Part shown: one piece after another, positions 43,770 to 55,229 of the stretch | How positions within the stretch are numbered: the stretch's first letter is position 1 | How the letters are laid out: each line of letters begins with the position of its first letter | Position numbers and translations under genes: made by a program | Notes under the pieces: model-generated | What the model saw: the letters and a program-made list of their open reading frames with translations, nothing else | Database searches by the model: none | What the model was told of the DNA's origin: nothing | Source: an uncultured Acidobacteriota bacterium | GTDB lineage: Bacteria; Acidobacteriota; UBA6911; RPQK01; JAPXNP01 | DNA: 64,000 nucleotides | Reading direction: 5' to 3' | Assembly: GCA_963777605.1 (NCBI GenBank) | Contig: CAVZRV010000028.1 | Span: forward strand, 64,001 to 128,000

Positions 43770-45675
43770 TTGTTCTTCCTGAGTTTCCATCGCAAAGACC
43801 CGCCTCCGGACCATTCCGTCAGAAGCCAGGATGTGATTGGCCACCTGATGCCGTTTGCCCAGCCTGACCGAAGCGGCACTTTCGAAGACTGCCGGGCACT
43901 GCTGATCCAGTGCGTCACTTGGAATACCGCCCCGTCCCGGGAGGAGCCGGCGCCGTTCCGTGACCCAGAATCAGGGGTCCTCGCCGCCGCCTGGGCCCGG
44001 ATCGACAACCGGGAGGAACTGGCCGAAGAGCTTGGCATGTCACGGACGGAGGCCAATCGGATCTGCGACACCGAACTGATCTGCCACTGCTACGGCAAGT
44101 GGAGAGAGGATTGTGTCGATCACCTCGTTGGTGACTTCGTCTTTGTGATCTATGACGAGAAAGAGCGTCGGGTCTTCTGCGGTCGCGACCATATGGGAGT
44201 CCGGCCCTTTTACTACTTTCTCTCCGATGACCGGTTCGTCTGTGCCACCAGCATCGCCCCGCTGCTTCATGTCAAAGACTTGCCAATCCAGATCAGCCGG
44301 AAGTGGATCGTCGACTATCTGACCCGCCTGTCGATGAGTTTTGACGAGACCCCGTATCCGCAAATCCGCAAATTGCCCCCGGCCCACACGCTCACCGTCA
44401 CCCCGGAGCAACATCGTCTCCGACGGTATTTCGAACTCTCGGCGCAACCCGGAGCTGAAGCTGAAGGACTCCCGGGAGTATGTGGACGCCTATCGAGAGC
44501 AGTTGGAAACCGCCATCAAATGCCGGCTCGCCACCGGCTACCCCCTCGGCTCCGAACTGAGCGGGGGCATCGATTCATCGACCATCACCGCCTACGCCGC
44601 GAAATTTCTCGGCCGGCAACTCACCCATTTCCACGCGTTCGCTTTCGCTCACCTGGAGATGGAACCGCAGTACATCCTTGCCGTAAGCCAGGCATACGGA
44701 CTCCCGCACACCCACGTCGTGGCGGATCGCCCCCAGGTTACAGATGCGGTCATTGACCGGTCCCTCAGGATTCTCGGCTATCCAGTCGAACACGGCAATG
44801 CCACGTTCCATGAGCTGTTCTACCAGCTGGCGGAACAACTCGATGTGCGGACCCTGCTGTCGGGATTCGGCGGCGATGAGTTCGGGACGACCATCCACGG
44901 CTACATGGTGCCCATGGAATTCATGGTGAAGAATCGTTATCTGGACCTTCTGAACATCCTCCCCGGGAAATCATTTCTCCGTCCCCTGCGACTCGCAAAG
45001 CTGGCGCTCAGAAGAGTGAAAACAAGGAACTTCACCCGCCCTGCGTACAACCCCCGGTTCTTGCAGGCCTGGAACAACCGCTGGCCCCATCAGATCGTGA
45101 CCGACGAGGCGATCAACGCATTCGATCTAAAGACGCGCCATTTCGAAAATGCCCGGTTTGATGCCGGCTACACCGACCTCAAGCGATTCACCATTGAAAA
45201 GCGCTGGATGCCTTTCGTGCCCACCCGCATGGAGAACTGCACTCTCATGGCCGCCGGGCGCAAGATCGAGTACCGCTGGCCATTGCTGGACGTGCGCCTG
45301 GTGAAACTTTGGCTGAGCATCCCGTCAGAGGAAAACTACTTCAGGGGAATGGGCCGCTACCTTCATCGCCGGGCCATCGTCGGGGTCGTCCCGGATCTGG
45401 TCACCTGGAAGGCAAGTAAGGACATGGGAGATCCCGCTCCGAGTAGTGATGCCGTATCCGAGGCGCGCATGGATACCAACGTCCTGGACCAACTCCATCC
45501 GGATCTGAAAGGACTAATCGACGTCGAGAAACTCACTCGACAGGCCGGCAAGATCGCGGACGCTGACACTGCAAGAACTCCTGCTCTTCGCACTCAGATC
45601 AGTCGCAACCTGCGCGCAGTAAAACACCTCGATTACTGGCTAAAGCACTGTCCACCCGGAGCCTCCATAGTGTAA
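43770..45675 (+). CDS. Lasso peptide cyclase (asparagine synthetase-like, C protein); frameshift near 44450
   Basis: ARIDNREEL, LVGDFVFVIYD, RDHMGVRPFYY, ELSGGIDSS, LLSGFGGDE and EYRWPLLD. No N-terminal catalytic Cys is seen. Near RRE, precursor and B2 genes. Confidence 0.8.
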
Positions 45676-46932
45676 GCCGGAGGCATCCCCGCGAGCAGGC
45701 CTCCGTGGATGAGCTGGGGGATCAGGGTTCCCCACCCGGTGTTTCCCTCCAGCAGGAAGGGACCCTGATCCGTAACCACGTAATCCCAGGCAATGGCATA
45801 GACATCCCGGAAGTGTTCGTGCGCGGCAATGGAGTGCCCCTTCATTTCGGCCCAGAAGGGGACAGTCCGGTTTTCGGCCCTGGCGTAGGTTCCCAAAGGC
45901 GGGCTTCGGCTCCGACGGGGAATCGATCCGGCGTCCCACGGCAGGGTCTCTCCACTTTCCCGGTCAATCGGAAGAATGATGTGAAAGGCCCGCCCTCTCG
46001 GAAGGGGCTTTTGGCGGCCTCGTTCTGTCATTGGCCCGGGAATCTCCAGCACGGCTGCGTAGCAACGAGCCGATCGACCGGCCGGGGCCTCGGTAATGAC
46101 CCGGACAGTGACGGCATCATCGCTTTCACAGAGTCCGGCCAGGTCGGGATGGTTCGGCATCAGGGGCTGAACCAGGTAGGGTTCCTGTGCCAGGCTCTCT
46201 CGCAGGCGATCCCACGTCGCTGGGCAAGTCGTCATCCCCTGCCGCGTTTCAAACACGGAGAAGACGGGATTCACCACCGTCCCGCTTCACGACAAAACAT
46301 CCCCGCCCGGCCGACCCGTGGCGAGGTTTGACGAAGAGCCCCGGGTACCCGGTCATCTGAACCGACGCACTGAAATCGCCCCCTGGAGGAATCACTTCCA
46401 GGGTGGGAACCATGGGAATGCCATCTTGACCCAGGATTTCGGCTGTCGCCTGCTTATCTCCGAGAATCCGTCCAGACTCACCGCGGTTCCCGTTTCGCAG
46501 ATCGCGCCATCGATGAAATGCCGGTAGTTCATGGGTGAAGACGTAATTCCAAATCCGCTTGTCTTGACCCTTCCGATACAGCCGGAAAGCATATGTTTCC
46601 GACGGCGGGATACAGCAAGCCAGCGCAACCCGAATCACACGCAGGAACTGGGAGATCATCCCCATGCCGTCCCTATCCCTGACGGTTGGCCCCAGCCGCC
46701 TGACCGCGCGAAAGGTCCCCCGCCAGGAGGAGAAAAGCGTCCAACGGAGATAGAGAAACGCCTCCATCACCAGGAAGAGCGGGAGAGGAGCCCGGGGAAA
46801 GCCCTTGAGCCAGAGACTTCGGTGAATGCGGACTTCAGGAGCTTGACGGGGCAAAAGATAGCGGGGACTCACCAATCCGTGGGGCAGCGAGCGGTTCAGG
46901 AGATGGCGCCTCACGAAACTCCGGAAACTCAT
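45633..46932 (-). CDS. Sugar-transfer-associated ATP-grasp family protein; frameshift near 46270
   Basis: GDKQATAEIL, LFVKPRHGSAGRG, LVQP, TVRVIT and IAWDYVVTDQGPFLLEGN. ATG overlaps the upstream stop (ATGA). Confidence 0.75.
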
Positions 46933-48261
46933 CTTGGCCATCCCGTCCCCAGCGAAGACGAAGGAGGAACCTCTCCCGAAGGAATCTCCGAGTCCGGCAC
47001 GACGACACCCCGAACGCGAAGTAGCCGGCCGGTGTCGGGGGACAGCTCTTTCGAGCTCCATTCGGAGCGACTCTTCACATCACAGCCCAGGCCAAAGTAG
47101 AAATCGCCGTTCAGGATTTCGAATGCCCGGGCGAACGTCGAAGCGGTGAAATGCAGGACCTCGAACCATTCCCTTAGATCACGGCTGCCGATTACCGCGA
47201 CCTCAACGCCGGCTTCACCGGTCGGCCCCTGCAAAAGCACAAACGCGACTCCATCTTGAACGATCAGGTCTCTCGGAAACGTCCGATCCGGCAGCCGGAT
47301 GCGGGCGACCCGGCAGTTTCGAGGCGCCAGGGACTCGGCCCGATAGAGCCCGAATGGGAGCGGACCGGCGGAGCCGATGTAGAGCGCCGCATCGCCCACA
47401 GCCGTGGCCCGATGGATCGAGGATGCTCGCCCCCGGACCTCCGTCGTTTCAGGAAACAACTCCCCGGCGGTGAGGTCGGGCCTGCGCGAAAAGCCCTTCC
47501 CGTCTTCGGCCAGTTCGTAAACCGCGGAATAGTACTTCTCCCGGCCATGGTGCAGTGATCCACGTCTCCAGCCCCGGGCCGGGAAAAACGTCGGTGGCGT
47601 AGAGCCGTCCCGAGACCTGGAGAAAAGTCTGAACGGCATATCCGCCCAGTGGAAAAACCTTCCACGATCCGCCGCGATCTTCGGATACCGCGACCGCCGA
47701 GCCGTAGCCATTGAAATCGACATACCAGGGGACCGTATCCGTAGCCTTAAGCCCGACATAGAGACTCCCGGCGTGGCCAGTCAGAGCGGCGGCATGAATC
47801 GCCCGGGGAATCGTCCGCAACTTCCGCCAATTTCCGCCGGGTTCCCGGCGATAAAGGTTTCCGAGCTCCCAGCCTTCTCTCGGATCGGCACCCGGAATGT
47901 AGAGCGTATCCTCGACGATCTCAAAGCGGCTGATCTCCTCTTCGTCGACTTCCCCTTCCCGAACCACCGTTCCTGCGTCCGGGTCCCACGCCAGAATCGG
48001 CACCGGTCCCGCATTCGGGGCAGGACCGCTGTTGTCGTAGTTGCCCGCGCCGATATAGAGACGCCCGCTGAAAGCCTGCAGGTCCCAGACGTTGCGTGCA
48101 TAGACGGCATCTCCTCCTGAATAGCGGTCAGCAAACGGGATACCAAGGTCCTCGACGCTAGCTGCCCCTCCGGAAAAAGGGCTCACCGGGGGCGCCGGAA
48201 AGCAAAGTCCCCCCATAAACAGAACAGCCAGGACAGTGAAAAGGCTGGCTCGAAACTTCAA
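46929..48261 (-). CDS. Secreted beta-propeller-like hypothetical protein; frameshift near 47550
   Basis: TTG start with signal LKFRASLFTVLAVLFMGGLCFPA, blade-like GRLYIGAG/GSLYVG/LYIGS repeats, and Asp-box SEDRGGSW. Confidence 0.6.
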
Positions 48262-48359
48262 TTCGCATGAATTGGAAGACTTGGACGACTTGGACTCGTT
48301 TGAGCCGGGCTTGATGCGGTCGGTGCAGAGCCGGGGACGCGATCGTCGGCTGGATCCTG

Positions 48360-49190
48360 GTTCCTGGCCCGGCAACAGTTCGGCGGTTCGCCAAAGTTCC
48401 GCAGGCGCAGGCCCGGTGAGGGCCTGCCTCTGTGTGCTCGACGGTCTTGCGGCTGGCGCCAAAACACAGAGCCGGGGGTAAGGCGAAGCCGCGCCCCCGG
48501 GTTCCTGGCCCGGCACCAGTTCGGCGGTTCGCCAAAGTTCCGCAGGCGCAGGCCCGGTGAGGGCCTGCCTCTGTGTGCTCGACGGTCTTGCGGCTGGCTC
48601 CAAAACGCAGAGCCGGGGGTAAGGCGAAGCCGCGGCCCCGGGTTCCTGGCCCGGCACCAATTCGGCGGTTCGCCAACGTTCCGTGGGCGCAGGCCCGGTG
48701 AGGGCCTGCCTCTGTGTGCTCGACGGTCTTGCGGCCGGCGCCAAAACACAGAGCCGGGGGTAAGGAACGCGCCCCCGGGTTCCAAAACACAGAGCCGGGG
48801 GTAAGGCGAAGCCGCCCCCCCGGGTTCCTGGTCCGGCACCAGTTCGGCGGTTCGGCAAAGTTCCGTGGACGCAGGCCCGGTGAGGGCCTGCCTCTGTGTG
48901 CTCGAGGGTCTTGCGGCTGGCGTCCAGACGCAGAGCCGGGGGTAAGGAACGCGCCCCCGGGTTCCAAAACACAGAGCCGGGGGTAAGGCGAAGCCGCCCC
49001 CCCGGGTTCCTGGTCCGGCACCAGTTCGGCGGTTCGGCAAAGTTCCGTGGACGCAGGCCCGGTGAGGGCCTGCCTCTGTGTGCTCGAGGATTTTGTGGCT
49101 GGCGTCCAGACGCAGAGCCGGGGGTAAGGCAAAGCCGCGCCCCCGGGCACATCAGGTCAGGTTTCACTCGATGCCGCGCCCCCGGGCATG
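48360..49190. repeat. BIME/REPIN-like tandem array 1 (five units)
   Basis: Units start at 48360, 48501, 48642, 48824 and 49006 (periods 141, 141, 182, 182 bp). Contains 5 GCAGGCCC-GGTGA-GGGCCTGC hairpins and 7 CAGAG-CCGGGGGTAAGG...CCCCGG hairpins. Confidence 0.92.
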
Positions 49191-49259
49191 TCGGGTAAAA
49201 CTTCACTCTCAGAATCATTCCCCGCGAGGTCGGAGCTCCCCGCAGAACAAGAGCAAAAG

Positions 49260-49562
49260 TCAGTCTGCGTCTTCCACGATCCGGATCGTGCCGTCAGACG
49301 CCAAGTCGTTCAGAAAGTCCAGGACGTCCTCCTGACAACGGCCCTCGTCAACCTCGTAGCGCGCCATCATTGTCTCGCAGATCTCCGACACCCGAACCGG
49401 GTTCTCAAGAAGATCCCAGATTTCACTGGCAATCACGTCAAGCCCGGAATAGGTGCCGTGTTCGACGCTCATCATGACCACTTCATCGTCGAGCAGGCTG
49501 GTTAAAACCTCCTCGGAACGGGCGATCGTCGATCCCAGTTCGACGGTCTTCTGTTTCTCCAT
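49260..49562 (-). CDS. PqqD-family RiPP recognition element (lasso B1)
   Basis: DDEVVMMSVEHGTYSGLDVIASEIWDLLENP...YEVDEGRCQEDVLDFLNDL. Confidence 0.92.
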   Translation of the reverse strand: MEKQKTVELGSTIARSEEVLTSLLDDEVVMMSVEHGTYSGLDVIASEIWDLLENPVRVSEICETMMARYEVDEGRCQEDVLDFLNDLASDGTIRIVEDAD

Positions 49563-49689
49563 AGCCTATCACCACCAGCCTGAACGAACCGATCAGCAGC
49601 CCGGTATCCCCAACTCGACTGAGGTACAGGTCCGATTTCAGTGACGTTTCCGCGGACTCCAGCAGGAAACTGCTATGCTGCAATCGCCC

Positions 49690-49884
49690 TCAAGACGGAC
49701 CCGACTGGTACTTCGTCTCAAGGGAAATGAAGCTTGCTTTCCCTTCCGTAAGGCTTGCAGCCATTTTTCGCCTTGCAGGGCGTGACCAGGGTCGTTTCCC
49801 GCTGCGGGACCGCAACGGAGAATTTTCCAGAGTCCCGTTGACCTTGTCCACACCTGGCTGACCTCGCCGTTCGACTCGTGACAT
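49690..49884 (-). CDS. Lasso peptide precursor A1
   Basis: RBS GGAGGAAGG. Leader has WSRP (Y/WxxP) and Thr at -2. Predicted core GKASFISLETKYQSGPS with Gly1, Glu9 and C-terminal Ser. Confidence 0.85.
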   Translation of the reverse strand: MSRVERRGQPGVDKVNGTLENSPLRSRSGKRPWSRPARRKMAASLTEGKASFISLETKYQSGPS

Positions 49885-50054
49885 ATAGATTCCTTCCTCC
49901 AGCCCTTACCGGCCGGCGCTTCGTACTTGGCCCCATATAATCGCACGCCCCCCCCCACAAAGGCAATCCTCCAACAGGCTTCACGATTGAGAAAAGACAT
50001 CGGATCGGCTATTGATTCACGCTCGCCGAGGGCGCGATCGTCGGCTGGATCCGG

Positions 50055-50811
50055 GTTCCTGGTCCGGCACCAGTTCGGCGGTTCGGCACAGTGCCGTGGA
50101 CGCAGGCCCGGTGAGGGCCTGCCTCTGTGTGCTCGAGGATTTTGCGACTGGCGTCCAGACGCAGAGCCGGGGGTAAGGAACGCGCCCCCGGGTTCCAAAA
50201 CACAGAGCCGGGGGTAAGGCGAAGCCGCCCCCCCGGGTTCCTGGCCCGGCACCAGTTCGGCGGTTCGGCAAAGTTCCGTGGACGCAGGCCCGGTGAGGGC
50301 CTGCCTCTGTGTGCTCGACGGTCTTGCGACTGGCGCCAAAACACAGAGCCGGGGGTAAGGAACGCGCCCCCGGGTTCCAAAACACAGAGCCGGGGGTAGG
50401 CGAAGCCGGCCCCGGGGTCCCTGGCAGGGCAACGCGTTTGGGAGAGTCACGCAAAGCCAGAATGGGTGCTGTCGCCAGAGCATACCGACGGCTTGTGGGT
50501 TGGTGGGCGACCCCGTGGACGCAGGCCCGGTGAGGGCCTGCCTCTGTGTGCTCGACGGTCTTGCGGCTGGCGCCAAAACGCAGAGCCGGGGTAAGGCGGC
50601 CCCGCGCCCCCGGGTTCCTGGCAGGGCAACGCGTTTGGGAGAGTCACGCAAAGCCAGAATGGGTGCTGTCGCCAGAGCATACCGACGGCTTGTGGGTTGG
50701 TGGCGACCCCGTGGGCGCAGGCCCGGTGAGGGCCTGCCTCTGTGTGCTCGACGGTCTTGCGACTGGCGCCCAGACGCAGAGCCGGGGGTAAGGCGAAGCC
50801 GCGCCCCCGGG
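50055..50811. repeat. BIME/REPIN-like tandem array 2 (four units)
   Basis: Same hairpins as array 1 (4 and 6 copies). The last two units carry a different ~100-bp linker (TGGCAGGGCAACGCG...GCGACCCC) repeated twice. Confidence 0.92.
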
Positions 50812-50886
50812 CATGTCGGGTAAAACTTCAACTCTCTGAATCATTCCCCGCGAGGTCGGAGTTCCCCAAGAGAACAAGAGCAAAAG

Positions 50887-51175
50887 TCAGTCTGCGTCTT
50901 CCACGATCCGGATCGTGCCGTCAGACGCCAGGTCGTTCAGAAAGTCGAGGACGTCCTCCTGACAACGGCCCTCGTCGACCTCGTAGCGCGCCATCATTGT
51001 CTCGCAGATCTCCGGACTCGAACCGAGGTACAAGGTCCCAGATTTCAGTGGCAATGTCAGCCCGGAATAGGTGCCGCGTCGACGCTCATCAAGACACTGC
51101 ATGCTGCAGGCTGGTAAAACCTCCTCGGAACGGGCGATCGTCGATCCCAGTTCGACGGTCTTCTCTTCAGATTCT
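50887..51175 (-). pseudogene. Second RRE (lasso B1) copy, disrupted by small deletions
   Basis: C-terminal EICETMMARYEVDEGRCQEDVLDFLNDLASDGTIRIVEDAD is identical to 49260-49562. The 5' half aligns at DNA level with many small gaps (real decay or read error). Confidence 0.75.
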
Positions 51176-51247
51176 CAAGCACCGCTCTAAATCCGACTGG
51201 GCCTACGGAATCACTTCAGTGGAAAGCCCGCCAACCGGCATCTGTCC

Positions 51248-51453
51248 TCAAGAGGGCGCGCTGTTGTATTTGGTGCCCAAAGTCTCTGATGAGGGACGAC
51301 AATCTTCCCTTCTGTAAGGTTTGCGGCCAATCTTTCGCCTCTCCGGGCGTGACCAGGGCCGTCTCCCACTACCGGGCCCCACCGGAGAACGTTCCGGGGT
51401 CCCGTTAACCCTATTCCGCTCCTGGTTGACCTCGTCCATTCGTCTAGTGACAG
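51248..51453 (-). CDS. Lasso peptide precursor A2 (apparent compensating indels)
   Basis: DNA aligns with A1. RRPWSRPERRK is in one frame, LAANLTEGKIVVP in the adjacent frame, then SSETLGTKYNSAPS*. Corrected core: GKIVVPSSETLGTKYNSAPS. Confidence 0.65.
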
Positions 51454-51731
51454 TAACTTCCTTCCTCCAGCCCTCACGGGACGGCGCTTCGTACTTGACC
51501 CAATTATAGTCGCACGCCCCCCCACAAAGACAATCCTCCAACAGGCTTGACGATTGAGAAAAGACATCGGATCGGCTATAAATTCAGGCTCGCCGGCCGG
51601 TGCTGCATGCCTCCGATTGGCCGCTTTCAGGTATTCTCTGGTGTGAGACAGAAGCGGTGGGTTCACGAATCGATCGGGTGGGTAAGGTCCGGTTGACCGA
51701 ACAACGACGCCAAAAGGATTGAAGAGGGTTT

Positions 51732-52631
51732 ATGGGCGGTTTCCATCGGTACCACGTTTTTGGTCTGAATATCGAATCGGCGATCCCGTTTCTGGACATC
51801 CCGGAGACGGAAGGCGCTGCCGACGTGACCATCGACTACGGCACGGTACCTGATGACCTCCCCGGCGCCACGATCAAAGGAGTCCGTTATCAGGCGGGCG
51901 GGGGGGAATTTCTTCTTCGGGTGGACAACGTGGCCCGATACTACGTGGCAAACGGCGCCACGATCATCGTTGAACCGCATCCAGGAGGAGCGGACCACGA
52001 GATTCTTCTCTTCTTGATGGGCTCGGCCATGGGGGCCCTCCTGCACCAGCGCAAGGTCCTGCCTCTGCACGGCAGTGCCGTCAGTCAAGACGGCAGCGGC
52101 ATTATCTTCCTCGGCCCGTCGGCCATCGGCAAGTCGACCCTGGCGGCGGGATTTCAGAAACAAGGTTACGCGCTGCTGGCAGATGACGTCTGCGCCGTAA
52201 CCGCCCAAAACGGGGACACTCCACGCATCATTCCGGGTTTTCCTCGCCTCAAACTGTGGAGGGATGCCCTGGAAAAGCTTGAAGAGAACAAGAGGGGATT
52301 GAATCGGGTTCGCCTCGACGAGACCTTCGAGAAGTACTTCCTGCCTTTTCAGCAACCTCAAAGCGATCCGGTTCCGGTCGGTGCCGTATTTTTACTCAAG
52401 ACGACCAACACCGATACGCTCGCACTTTCCGAACTGAAAGGGAATGAGAAGATCGATCCCCTGATTACCAACACCTACCGGGCCCGGTTCCTCAAGGGTA
52501 TGGGCGACAAGAGGGAACACTTCAGACTCTGTGCGGCCGTTGCCGGAAAAGCTTCGGTCTTCCAGGTCACCAGACCCCTCAAAGGGTTTCGGCTGGAAGA
52601 ATTGATGGCTCTCGTGGAGGAGCATTTTTGA
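51732..52631 (+). CDS. HPr-kinase-like lasso peptide kinase
   Basis: YHVFGLNIES, LPLHGSAV, Walker A GPSAIGKST, LLADD and PGFPRLKLW. Confidence 0.85.
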   Translation: MGGFHRYHVFGLNIESAIPFLDIPETEGAADVTIDYGTVPDDLPGATIKGVRYQAGGGEFLLRVDNVARYYVANGATIIVEPHPGGADHEILLFLMGSAMGALLHQRKVLPLHGSAVSQDGSGIIFLGPSAIGKSTLAAGFQKQGYALLADDVCAVTAQNGDTPRIIPGFPRLKLWRDALEKLEENKRGLNRVRLDETFEKYFLPFQQPQSDPVPVGAVFLLKTTNTDTLALSELKGNEKIDPLITNTYRARFLKGMGDKREHFRLCAAVAGKASVFQVTRPLKGFRLEELMALVEEHF

Positions 52632-53494
52632 CCGTGGGCGGCATTGTCTGGCTGGCATCCTACCCCAAATCCGGAAACACCTGGTTCCGTGTCTTCCTGT
52701 CCAATCTGATGGGTGAACTCGAGGAAGCCGCCAACATCAACGACTTGAAAAGCACCCCCATCGCCAGCGCAGGGGCATTTTCGACGAAGCGGTCGGCTTC
52801 GAATCCTCGGACCTGACCGCGGACGAAATCGACCGGCTCCGGCCTGAAATCTACAATCATATTGCTGCCGAGGCGGACGAGACTCGGTTCATGAAGGTGC
52901 ATGATGCGTACACCGAGATAGCGGCAGGCAGCCCCTGTTTCCGGCCGAGGCCACCCGGGGCGCTATCTATTTCTTGCGCAATCCCCTGGATGTGGCGGTC
53001 TCCTTTGCCCACCATTCAGGACACGATTACGACAAGGCGATCGCCCAGATGGCGGATCAAGAGAACTGCTTTTGCGGCAAAGTCTCGATCGACTGCACAA
53101 CCAGCTCCGGCAGAAGCTCCTCTCCTGGAGTTCCCACGTGATCAGCTGGATGGAAGCTCCCGGCATCGAAGTGTGCCTGGTGAGGTACGAAGACATGAAA
53201 CAGAAACCTCTCGAGACCTTTGAACGAGCGGCGCGTTTTGCCGGGCTTGTCTACGAACAGGCCCAGATTCAAAGAGCCATCGAGCTGAGTGCTTTCGACG
53301 CATTGAAGCGCCAGGAGGAGAAGAACGGTTTCGATGAAAAGAGTCCAAATTCAAAATTCTTTTTCCGAAGAGGGGAAGTCGGCTCCTGGCGGGAGGAGCT
53401 GAATAGCCGGCAGATTGAGAGGATCATCAGCGATCATGGCGAAGCGATGCGCAGATTCGGTTATCTGGATGAGAACGGCAAGGTGCGCCTTTGA
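52628..53494 (+). CDS. PAPS-dependent sulfotransferase; several frameshifts
   Basis: 5'-PSB motif WLASYPKSGNTW, KVHDAY, YFLRNPLDVAVS (alternate frame), VRYEDMK and FFRRGEVGSW. Start overlaps the kinase stop. Confidence 0.82.
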
Positions 53495-53937
53495 CTCGAT
53501 ATCCATCCCTGATCATCCGGTTCTTCAGGAAGCCCCTCGCCGAGCAACTGATCTTCAGTGAAGCGGTTTTCTGGCTTGCCCTCACCCGGATGGCAACGCT
53601 GATCCTACCGTTCAAATGGGTTGCCCGCTTTCTGGGAACCCACATGGCGGAATCGGATCGACTTCATCCCGCCGACCGGACGAGAAAAGCCCGGCGCGTT
53701 GCGTCGTGCATCCGCGCTATGAGCCGCCACCTGCCATGGGACTGTAAATGCCTGGTCCAAGCTATTTCCGGGAAGATGATGCTGGACCGCAGAAACATCT
53801 CCAATACCCTTTACCTCGGGGTCTCCAAAGGCCAGGAGGACGGGCTGATCGCCCATGCCTGGCTGCGTTCCGGTGAAACGATCATCCTCGGAGGTGGCGG
53901 ACTGGACCGGTTCACTGTGGTGGCAACCTTTACCTGA
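53491..53937 (+). CDS. Lasso peptide B2 leader protease (transglutaminase-like)
   Basis: LPWDCKCLVQA...LYLGV...AHAWL (catalytic Cys/His). Start overlaps the sulfotransferase stop. Confidence 0.9.
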   Translation: MTRYPSLIIRFFRKPLAEQLIFSEAVFWLALTRMATLILPFKWVARFLGTHMAESDRLHPADRTRKARRVASCIRAMSRHLPWDCKCLVQAISGKMMLDRRNISNTLYLGVSKGQEDGLIAHAWLRSGETIILGGGGLDRFTVVATFT

Positions 53938-54706: not shown

Positions 54707-55229
54707 CCGGCGACCAGGAGATTCGCGGTGCCAGGATCGAAGGCCAGCGCAGTCGGCGCCGAGGAGAGGGGCCCGGGTCGGGACCGGGCGGCTAGTTCAT
54801 GGAAGCCCGCTCCCTCCGCGCGCGGAGACCATTCAGAGCGTGAAACTGGGGCGGGCGCACCGGACCTGGCACGCGGCCGGTGTTCAGAACGAGAGTAAAG
54901 CGAGCGCTACGCCTGACTCCCATCCATTACCAGTCCTGGATCTTGACTCCATCCCACGGTTGCGGCCTCCGGCAGCACTTCCGCTGACTCACCATCGTCC
55001 GGAGCCGCGGTCGCTCACACTCGCGTTCTGAAATCGGGGCATCCAGGATCCAGCCGAGAGCCAGGCTTCTAAGTTCCACCGATCGCCCGAATCTCCGTCC
55101 AGACGCATCCAACGGGACGAAACATGGCCGCTGCAGAAGAAACTGACCCGCATTTACTGGTGGGGCCCGGATCCGGCGAATCTCAAAGCCGGCATTCGAT
55201 AACGGTCACACCGTTTCATCCACGTTCTC

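Follow-up and report, generated by a model that had tools for sequence, protein, structure and literature searches.

The window analyzed here is a 64,000-nt stretch of contig CAVZRV010000028.1 from an uncultured Acidobacteriota bacterium (C28:64001-128000 of genome G000, which comprises 6.73 Mb in 53 contigs). It contains a lasso-peptide gene cluster of the type that includes an HPr-kinase homolog and a sulfotransferase, and part of this cluster is duplicated in tandem in the assembly. Each of the two adjacent units, A and B, consists, in minus-strand order, of a precursor gene, a gene for a PqqD-family recognition element (RRE; recognition element of RiPPs, ribosomally made peptides with post-translational modifications), and, downstream of the RRE gene, an array of repetitive extragenic palindrome (REP) hairpins (Table 1). 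This duplication had been proposed from the DNA letters alone (hereafter, the sequence-only reading) and is borne out in the assembly: within the window, the 20-mer that opens the units, CGCGATCGTCGGCTGGATCC, is found at 48338 and 50033 and nowhere else, and the 22-mer close to their ends, GAAAAGACATCGGATCGGCTAT, at 49991 and 51558 alone (chance expectation 0 for both), and GCTCGCCG, located 8 nt beyond GAAAAGACATCGGATCGGCTAT in each case, closes both units. The non-array parts of the two units align with 90.2% identity over 377 nt and 83.3% identity over 294 nt, and no further copies of the cassette genes were found elsewhere in G000. The proposed division into two units stands, as does the start of unit B at 50033; the first copy of the 20-mer is at 48338, so unit A begins one base before the proposed 48339.

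Table 1. Features of the lasso-peptide cluster and its duplicated portion (coordinates in the window)
Feature	Position	Strand	Description
Duplication unit A	48338-50032	.	1695 nt
Duplication unit B	50033-51595	.	1563 nt
R420 fragment	48243..48372	+	79.5% identity over 132 nt; holds the unit A 20-mer
Junction AGGG	50029..50032	.	Between the unit A end, GCTCGCCG, and the unit B start
Precursor A	49690-49884	-	64 amino acids; leader end WSRPARRKMAASLTE, core GKASFISLETKYQSGPS
Precursor B	51248-51439	-	Open reading frame; 13 codons at the leader/core junction out of frame
RRE A	49260-49562	-	Intact, 100 amino acids, PqqD-family lasso B1 chaperone
RRE B remnant	50890-51168	-	95-codon open frame, N-terminus without a start codon
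REP array A	48358..49147	+	5 units: (s1 H1 H2 R)x2, (s1 H1 H2 r R)x2, (s1 H1 H2 R)
REP array B	50053..50811	+	4 units: (s1 H1 H2 r R)x2, (s2 H1 H2 R)x2
Lasso cyclase, Asn-synthetase-like	43770..45675	+	Two overlapping reading frames, frame change near 44450
ATPgrasp_ST-like gene	45633..47061	-	Two reading frames, frame change near 46260
Signal-peptide-bearing protein gene	46929..48271	-	Two overlapping reading frames; probable TTG start at ~48271, from the sequence
HPr-kinase-like gene	51732..52631	+	Intact, 299 amino acids
Sulfotransferase	52628..53494	+	Three single-base frame changes near 52775, 52945, and 53080
Lasso B2 protease, transglutaminase-like	53491..53937	+	Intact

The two precursor genes differ in their state. 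Lasso precursors typically carry Thr at position -2, a small residue at core position 1, and Asp or Glu at core positions 7-9. Precursor A, which reads ...KRPWSRPARRKMAASLTE|GKASFISLETKYQSGPS (...LTE|GKASFISLE...) across the cleavage point, has Thr(-2), Gly1, and Glu9, and a Shine-Dalgarno-like sequence, GGAGGAAGGA, is located upstream of its gene. In precursor B, the same features appear only when two frame changes are read through: RPWSRPERRK and SSETLGTKYNSAPS are encoded in one frame and AANLTEGKIVVP in another, and the continuous open reading frame (ORF) yields ...RRKIGRKPYRREDCRPSSE..., without the Thr(-2)/Gly1 junction. Compared with A, precursor B has one additional T at ATTGG and lacks one C of a C run; the homopolymer sites concerned are near 51330 and 51292. 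The similar leader and the ring GKIVVPSSE that the sequence-only reading assigned to copy B are accordingly not in one reading frame, and the leader end and ring given there for B are obtained only via these two single-base changes. Furthermore, the position of copy A's ATG is AC-TG in precursor B and is followed by an in-frame TAG, stops are present upstream in the orthologous frame, and the ATG that precursor B does have is 24 nt from the Shine-Dalgarno-like sequence, with no ribosome-binding site at that ATG. Both precursors end in Ser. A search of 5.8 billion proteins for precursor homologs returned a single candidate and no match at E ≤ 0.01. In relatives, candidate precursors adjoining the kinase genes (L012 9423-9740 and L015 9630-9845) have, like precursor A, a W-x-x-P motif ~13-15 residues ahead of the presumed cleavage site, and their last residue is Ser as well. 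The motif can be likened to the YxxP leader motif of other lasso peptides.

The RRE genes show a comparable asymmetry. RRE A matches the Pfam family PqqD with 67.5 bits (cut-off 23.4) and NF033536 (lasso_PqqD_Bac) with 77.2 bits, just below the cut-off of 80. The PqqD match of RRE B is limited to the C-terminal half (34.2 bits). Three blocks of RRE B encode peptides identical to those of A (16, 6, and 41 residues), the last of these being the final 41 residues, in agreement with the identical C-termini noted in the sequence-only reading. Six indels are clustered in two patches (-1, -4, and -1 nt, net -6; and -4, -4, and -1 nt, net -9). In our reading of the alignment, codons of the ancestral helix persist in a shifted frame in the second patch; therefore, the patches are frame-shifted rather than in-frame deletions. 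A 29-nt deletion in unit B additionally removes the equivalent of the RRE A ATG, and the first start codon of the RRE B open frame is 24 codons in, with none ahead of residue 30. In this assembly, RRE B is a pseudogene. The search for RRE homologs yielded 22 proteins, of which one (P0001, encoded on a 1985-nt contig) is 97% identical; among the 76 genomes of the order, 11 contain matches at E ≤ 1e-10, with the best non-self identity of 43-44%.

Codon comparison of the copies, performed in the frame homologous to copy A, revealed a mosaic of divergence. Overall, the precursors differ at 15.5 of 33.3 synonymous sites (~0.47), with the proportion of synonymous differences (pS) ranging from 0.31 to 0.79 among segments, compared with 4 of 44.7 sites (~0.09) in the conserved RRE blocks (Fisher p 1.4e-4), a comparison that is biased by the selection of these blocks for identical peptides. 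In the C-terminal half of the leader, 3 of 42 non-synonymous sites differ, and the proportion of non-synonymous differences (pN 0.06-0.08, against pS 0.45-0.50) indicates that this half is under purifying selection. None of the six residues at ring positions 3-8 is common to the two copies, and copy B has three additional residues; in the tail, six of the eight residues are kept, including a serine encoded by TCG/AGC, despite near-saturated synonymous change. The spacers between the precursor and RRE genes of A and B are unalignable. The comparison of leader and core divergence recommended in the sequence-only reading hence yields a core-specific pattern, with the leader C-terminal half conserved and ring positions 3-8 completely replaced. 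Copy B is decayed in this assembly and does not amount to an intact second cassette. Given the precursor pS of ~0.47 as opposed to ~0.09 in the RRE blocks, together with the conserved leader, the precursors appear to be much older than their flanks and both to have been under purifying selection during most of that time; we consider them to be probable old, once-functional paralogs with homogenized flanks. Two histories would fit this pattern: in one, the duplication is old and its flanks later underwent gene conversion; in the other, the duplication is recent and a diverged precursor was brought in. As a description of history, "conserved leader, diversified core" is correct.

The arrays are built of units that consist of a spacer (s1, or the different 97-nt s2), hairpin H1 (8-bp stem), hairpin H2 (8-bp stem and long loop), and either hairpin R or r, a version of R with a short loop; these modules were located using blastn-short, with one strand searched. 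Tandem Repeats Finder delineates the arrays at 48359-49147 (periods 141/182) and 50051-50811 (periods 182/197). The difference in composition reported previously was recovered: all five units of array A contain s1, and the four units of array B include two with s1 and two with s2. One unit is predicted to fold into four hairpins (-39.2 kcal/mol, z -2.35), and R alone yields -12.8 kcal/mol (z -3.0). The 35-nt core of R is present in 36 copies in G000 (≤3 mismatches) compared with 0 in the reversed control, and no copies were found in the 75 other genomes of the order (this set, like the 41-genome set used below for the kinase, includes the unpublished genome G018). Among the dispersed copies of R, 25 of 29 fall outside coding-like ORFs; for comparison, 74.5% of a set of 200 random positions fall inside one.

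The only other locus in G000 with large arrays, C28:137080-141626, is located 23 kb away. It contains tandem genes for 186-amino-acid proteins similar to REP-associated tyrosine transposases (RAYTs) between REP arrays (L001 8533-9093 and 10494-11054; C28:138533-141054), and the arrays there consist of ~17 s2-H1-H2-r units in the orientation opposite to that of the lasso arrays. The copies of the array and RAYT gene (L001 8369-11324) are 97.2% identical over 1004 nt, with 5 mismatches and 2 gap columns in 701 separating the gene segments (~99% identical); this locus is a recent tandem duplication of an array with its gene. The RAYT-like protein showed only a weak match to Y1_Tnp (E 0.008-0.01, below the cut-off), and a PDB sequence search returned nothing significant (best E 0.64, unrelated). 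Seven homologs are 34-40% identical to it (E 4.6e-13 to 6.1e-31), four of these with PF01797 and two with the JGI name RayT, and H102-L-H104 and Y162 are invariant in all eight aligned sequences. As described in part of PMC2817692, RAYTs are IS200/IS605-like proteins with a His-hydrophobic-His motif and a catalytic Tyr, inverted REPs are required on the flanks of their genes, and REPs usually number more than 100 copies per genome. Both lasso arrays are tandem REP arrays of composite type, from a family that is specific to this genome and linked to a RAYT gene; the assignment of the arrays to REPs in the sequence-only reading is corroborated by the mostly extragenic hairpin copies and by the RAYT homology.

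Examination of the unit boundaries places the duplication junction outside these arrays. The opening 20-mer is not unique to the units and belongs to a dispersed repeat of ~420 nt, R420, with 58 genomic loci of at least 200 nt. The R420 fragment at 48243-48372 comprises the left flank and the first 34 nt of unit A, the 20-mer occurs in the same 34-mer context at six other loci, and it forms the loop of a REP-like hairpin in R420. The left parental sequence is ...CAGAGCCGGGGA|CGCGATCG, the right one is ...GCTCGCCG|GCCGG, and the observed junction is GCTCGCCG-AGGG-CGCGATCG, with GCCG(G) present at both parental breakpoints. The breakpoint that had been placed at the array edge is actually 20 nt outside the array, within the REP-like hairpin of R420, with 4-5 nt of microhomology. 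No third array follows unit B on its right side. Unequal crossing-over between arrays is rejected as the origin of the duplication given the position of the junction outside the arrays and the lack of a third array, and we therefore infer a microhomology join instead. Tandem duplications in Escherichia coli have microhomology junctions, some of them in REPs, according to part of PMC1428787.

R420 is present in the window also at 55043-55112. At another locus (L032, C8:328479-337478), an R420 tandem array adjoins tandem genes for IS110-family transposases (DEDD_Tnp_IS110, Transposase_20), and, by our reading of the coordinates, several loci have hairpin R within a few bases of an R420 end. The repeat may represent a non-coding end of an IS110 element, or a miniature inverted-repeat transposable element derived from one, that targets REPs. 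Rfam searches of loci L032, L020, and L031 at gathering thresholds produced 0 matches.

Within the cluster, the kinase, B2, RRE A, and precursor A are intact. The kinase matches Hpr_kinase_C (E 1.4e-7) with 31.7 bits, just below the Pfam cut-off of 33.3, and B2 matches NF033537 with 102.6 bits (cut-off 33) and Transglut_core3 with 85.6 bits. The cyclase has both of its domains, in two frames, with GATase_7 in ORF 43770-44756 and Asn_synthase in ORF 44341-45675; its NF033535 score is 127 bits against a cut-off of 525, and the alignment with the cyclases of relatives runs in frame 3 up to 44450 and continues in frame 1 from 44449. The ATPgrasp_ST-like gene is divided in the same manner, with positions 11-84 of the Pfam family in ORF 46249-47061 and positions 111-266 in ORF 45633-46277. 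The ORFs of the signal-peptide-bearing protein (47449-49218 and 46929-47759) overlap in different frames, and neither has a Pfam or NCBIfam family. The sulfotransferase remains homologous to the intact gene of a relative (locus L012) across all three frame changes, and its homologous segments contain no in-frame stops. A DUF1003 gene is also found in the cluster surroundings, and the genes for a 525-amino-acid GH109-like protein and a 1107-amino-acid tricorn-like protease in the flanks are whole. A Pfam search of 23 ORFs in same-strand overlapping pairs detected no clear split domains elsewhere in the window. A scan for promoters and terminators was uninformative (1 promoter-like hit against 0.4 expected; 3 terminator-like hits against 3.8 expected).

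The G000 assembly is estimated to be 96.7% complete with 5.68% contamination. It contains poly-T runs at C7:1048962 (389 nt), C8:331792 (161 nt), C31:258375 (503 nt), and C31:262596 (837 nt), one of which adjoins a 16-nt G run; these runs are most likely assembly or read artefacts that warn of poor local consensus quality. The 13.8-kb contig C24 largely duplicates the repeat and IS110 region at C8:328-337 kb, with 92-99.7% identity, and may be an alternative haplotype or an unresolved copy of the repeat. A genome-wide frameshift detector based on codon usage produced 237 candidates, with a distribution close to Poisson, no enrichment of homopolymers compared with random positions, and an approximately twofold higher rate in small contigs; it caught one of the frame changes in the lasso cluster and is too insensitive and unspecific to give an error rate.

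Among 41 related genomes, 18 contain matches to the kinase at E ≤ 0.001, the best of which, in G010 and G002, show 37-39% identity. In these best loci (L012 and L013), the genes for the kinase, the sulfotransferase, B2, and the cyclase are arranged in one row, and the sulfotransferase is whole. A kinase search of genome contigs gave 263 pattern matches, with no relative among them, and a search of metagenome contigs identified three loci with 60-62% identity, at which no RRE, precursor, or array matching those of the window was found. Two of the metagenome loci (L018 1376-1546 and L019 3675-3845) contain a fragment that matches kinase residues 243-299 only, ~1.15 kb upstream of the full kinase gene. 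These fragments suggest that rearrangement or duplication has occurred at this position in other lineages as well. An ORF of L018 (1795-2598) that looks transposase-like by eye matched no Pfam family at E ≤ 0.001.

The cluster has the components of paeninodin-type clusters, namely, a PqqD-family B1, a transglutaminase-like B2, an Asn-synthetase-like cyclase, an HPr-kinase-like gene, and a sulfotransferase, and shares Thr(-2), Gly1, and Glu9 (in precursor B, only through the frame changes). In the relevant part of PMC8498205, HPr-kinase homologs encoded in lasso clusters, some of which also contain sulfotransferase genes, phosphorylate the C-terminal Ser of the precursor; this residue, the kinase target in paeninodin, is likewise present here, and its phosphorylation is predicted. 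Unlike in paeninodin-type clusters, the gene order is rearranged, with the precursor and RRE genes diverging from the kinase gene and the cyclase gene 6 kb away, past two genes on the opposite strand; the cyclase and sulfotransferase are frame-shifted, and the kinase scores just under the Pfam cut-off. For caulosegnins I-III, several precursors with related leaders and different cores reportedly share one enzyme set. In the present case, the duplicated stretch took in the RRE gene and the repeat array as well as the precursor, and its second copy is assembled in broken form.

The repeats, too, are of a familiar kind. As in the REP/RAYT systems covered in part of PMC2817692, a short, GC-rich, dispersed hairpin that is mostly extragenic forms composite tandem arrays, and a gene similar to Y1 transposases, with H-x-H and Tyr, has arrays flanking both of its copies. 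The family is smaller than is typical of such systems (36 copies vs >100), and the RAYT protein alone falls under the Y1_Tnp cut-off. In bacterial interspersed mosaic elements (BIMEs), REPs alternate in orientation, whereas all modules of arrays A and B have one orientation and a fixed order, with three hairpins and a spacer; the likeness to BIME-2 extends to tandem composites and nothing further. The duplication itself resembles the REP-associated duplications of E. coli presented in part of PMC1428787 in being direct and tandem, with a G-rich junction of a few nucleotides and one breakpoint in a REP-like palindrome without full REP homology. It differs in being an evolutionary rather than an experimental event, with a mechanism deduced from one junction that has since diverged.

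Taken together, these observations are probably best explained by a duplicated lasso cassette with old paralogous precursors, a decayed RRE B, and bystander arrays. Under this explanation, the precursor-RRE bicistron and the REP array downstream of it would have been duplicated in tandem, most likely through microhomology-mediated illegitimate recombination or template switching at GCCG(G), with the breakpoints in the 5' arm of the REP-like hairpin and between the precursor promoter region and the kinase gene. Both precursors would have been under selection for a long time, sharing the recognition half of the leader and the TKYxSxPS tail, the terminal Ser of which is the expected kinase substrate. 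The RRE blocks, terminator, and promoter would later have been homogenized by gene conversion, or else precursor B would have been imported; the redundant RRE B has decayed, and the arrays would have altered their unit composition after the duplication, as bystanders or, at most, fragile sites.

Several points weigh against this explanation. A join at the shared GCCG(G) predicts the observed junction only with 2 mismatches in 15 nt. The tracts of gene conversion needed for RRE B are short, only 30-60 nt, and the pS contrast carries the selection bias mentioned above. The age and order of the events are read from one genome, given that the search for precursor homologs found none and that the 76 genomes of the order include no close relative. 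Finally, the decay itself is open to doubt. All inspected frame changes (in the cyclase, sulfotransferase, ATP-grasp, and precursor B genes) are +/-1 at homopolymers of 2-5 nt, the assembly contains the poly-T runs of 161-837 nt, and the two frame changes in precursor B cancel over 13 codons, which fits a consensus error as well as a recent mutation. We give the cluster a slightly better than even chance of undergoing pseudogenization, and a locally error-rich assembly of the long-read type a chance slightly short of even.

The strongest alternative, tentative in our judgment, is that this is a working two-precursor cluster, in which the single-base frame changes are consensus errors and one enzyme set together with RRE A serves two rings. 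When the out-of-frame segment of precursor B is translated in the A-like frame, it encodes L-T-E-G-K with synonymous changes only (ACG/ACA, AAA/AAG, and GCT/GCC), and this segment was therefore read in that frame during most of the divergence. The inspected +/-1 changes at short homopolymers, the sulfotransferase segments free of in-frame stops, the artefact-like poly-T runs, and the doubled rate of frameshift candidates in small contigs all fit consensus errors. However, the frame changes are concentrated in 43.7-53.5 kb, with whole genes on the flanks, and a comparison of four IS110 copies shows only 2 indel columns in 1682. Moreover, precursor B lacks the ATG of copy A and has upstream stops in the orthologous frame, and the multi-base indels of RRE B and the 29-nt deletion are not homopolymer errors.

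The mechanism favored in the sequence-only reading, in which REP arrays serve as sites of recombination or cleavage and, with the RAYT, actively produce and vary precursor cassettes, we regard as improbable. At both large-array loci in G000, one or more neighboring genes are indeed duplicated in tandem (the lasso cassette in one case and the array with the RAYT gene in the other), one breakpoint of the lasso duplication is in a REP-like hairpin, and array B holds s2-type units that are otherwise found at the RAYT locus. These are, however, two loci only, both on one contig; the lasso junction is outside the array, with 4-5 nt of homology and no array to the right of unit B; and neither the lasso loci of relatives nor the three metagenome loci yielded an array or REP. 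The genome has ~32 further local direct duplications that reach 400 nt or more, none of which is beside a large array because large arrays are present at these two loci only. The associated proposition that REP/RAYT arrays provide a local scaffold for the amplification of small gene cassettes, with the ring of the lasso copy diversified afterward, seems to us at least as doubtful. Least probable of all is that the tandem arrangement is an assembly artefact in which two strain alleles were strung together across the arrays: the 53 contigs, the 5.68% contamination, the partial repetition of the C8 region by contig C24, and the allele-like mosaic divergence of the units would be compatible with it, but unique promoter-side sequence is joined to the 20-mer with only GCCG in common and no long shared sequence to mislead an assembler, the arrays differ in unit order, and the right end of unit B directly meets the kinase gene, whereas that of unit A does not.

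Multi-precursor and kinase-type lasso clusters, REP/RAYT arrays, and microhomology duplications are all of known kinds, and a keyword search of open-access text found no published link between them. Whether the frame changes are real or not, the locus indicates that duplication, gene conversion of the flanks, and loss of a redundant RRE can leave a diversified precursor behind, with no new mechanism established. If the doubtful amplification scaffold were nevertheless real, repeat-linked amplification of cassettes would offer one way of diversifying RiPP precursors. Real frame changes would make the locus a RiPP cluster in the process of decay within a repeat-rich genome. If they are assembly errors, this would be an uncharacterized lasso cluster of the kinase/sulfotransferase type with two natural rings on one leader-tail scaffold, and a ready-made test of how far its enzymes tolerate changes in the substrate.

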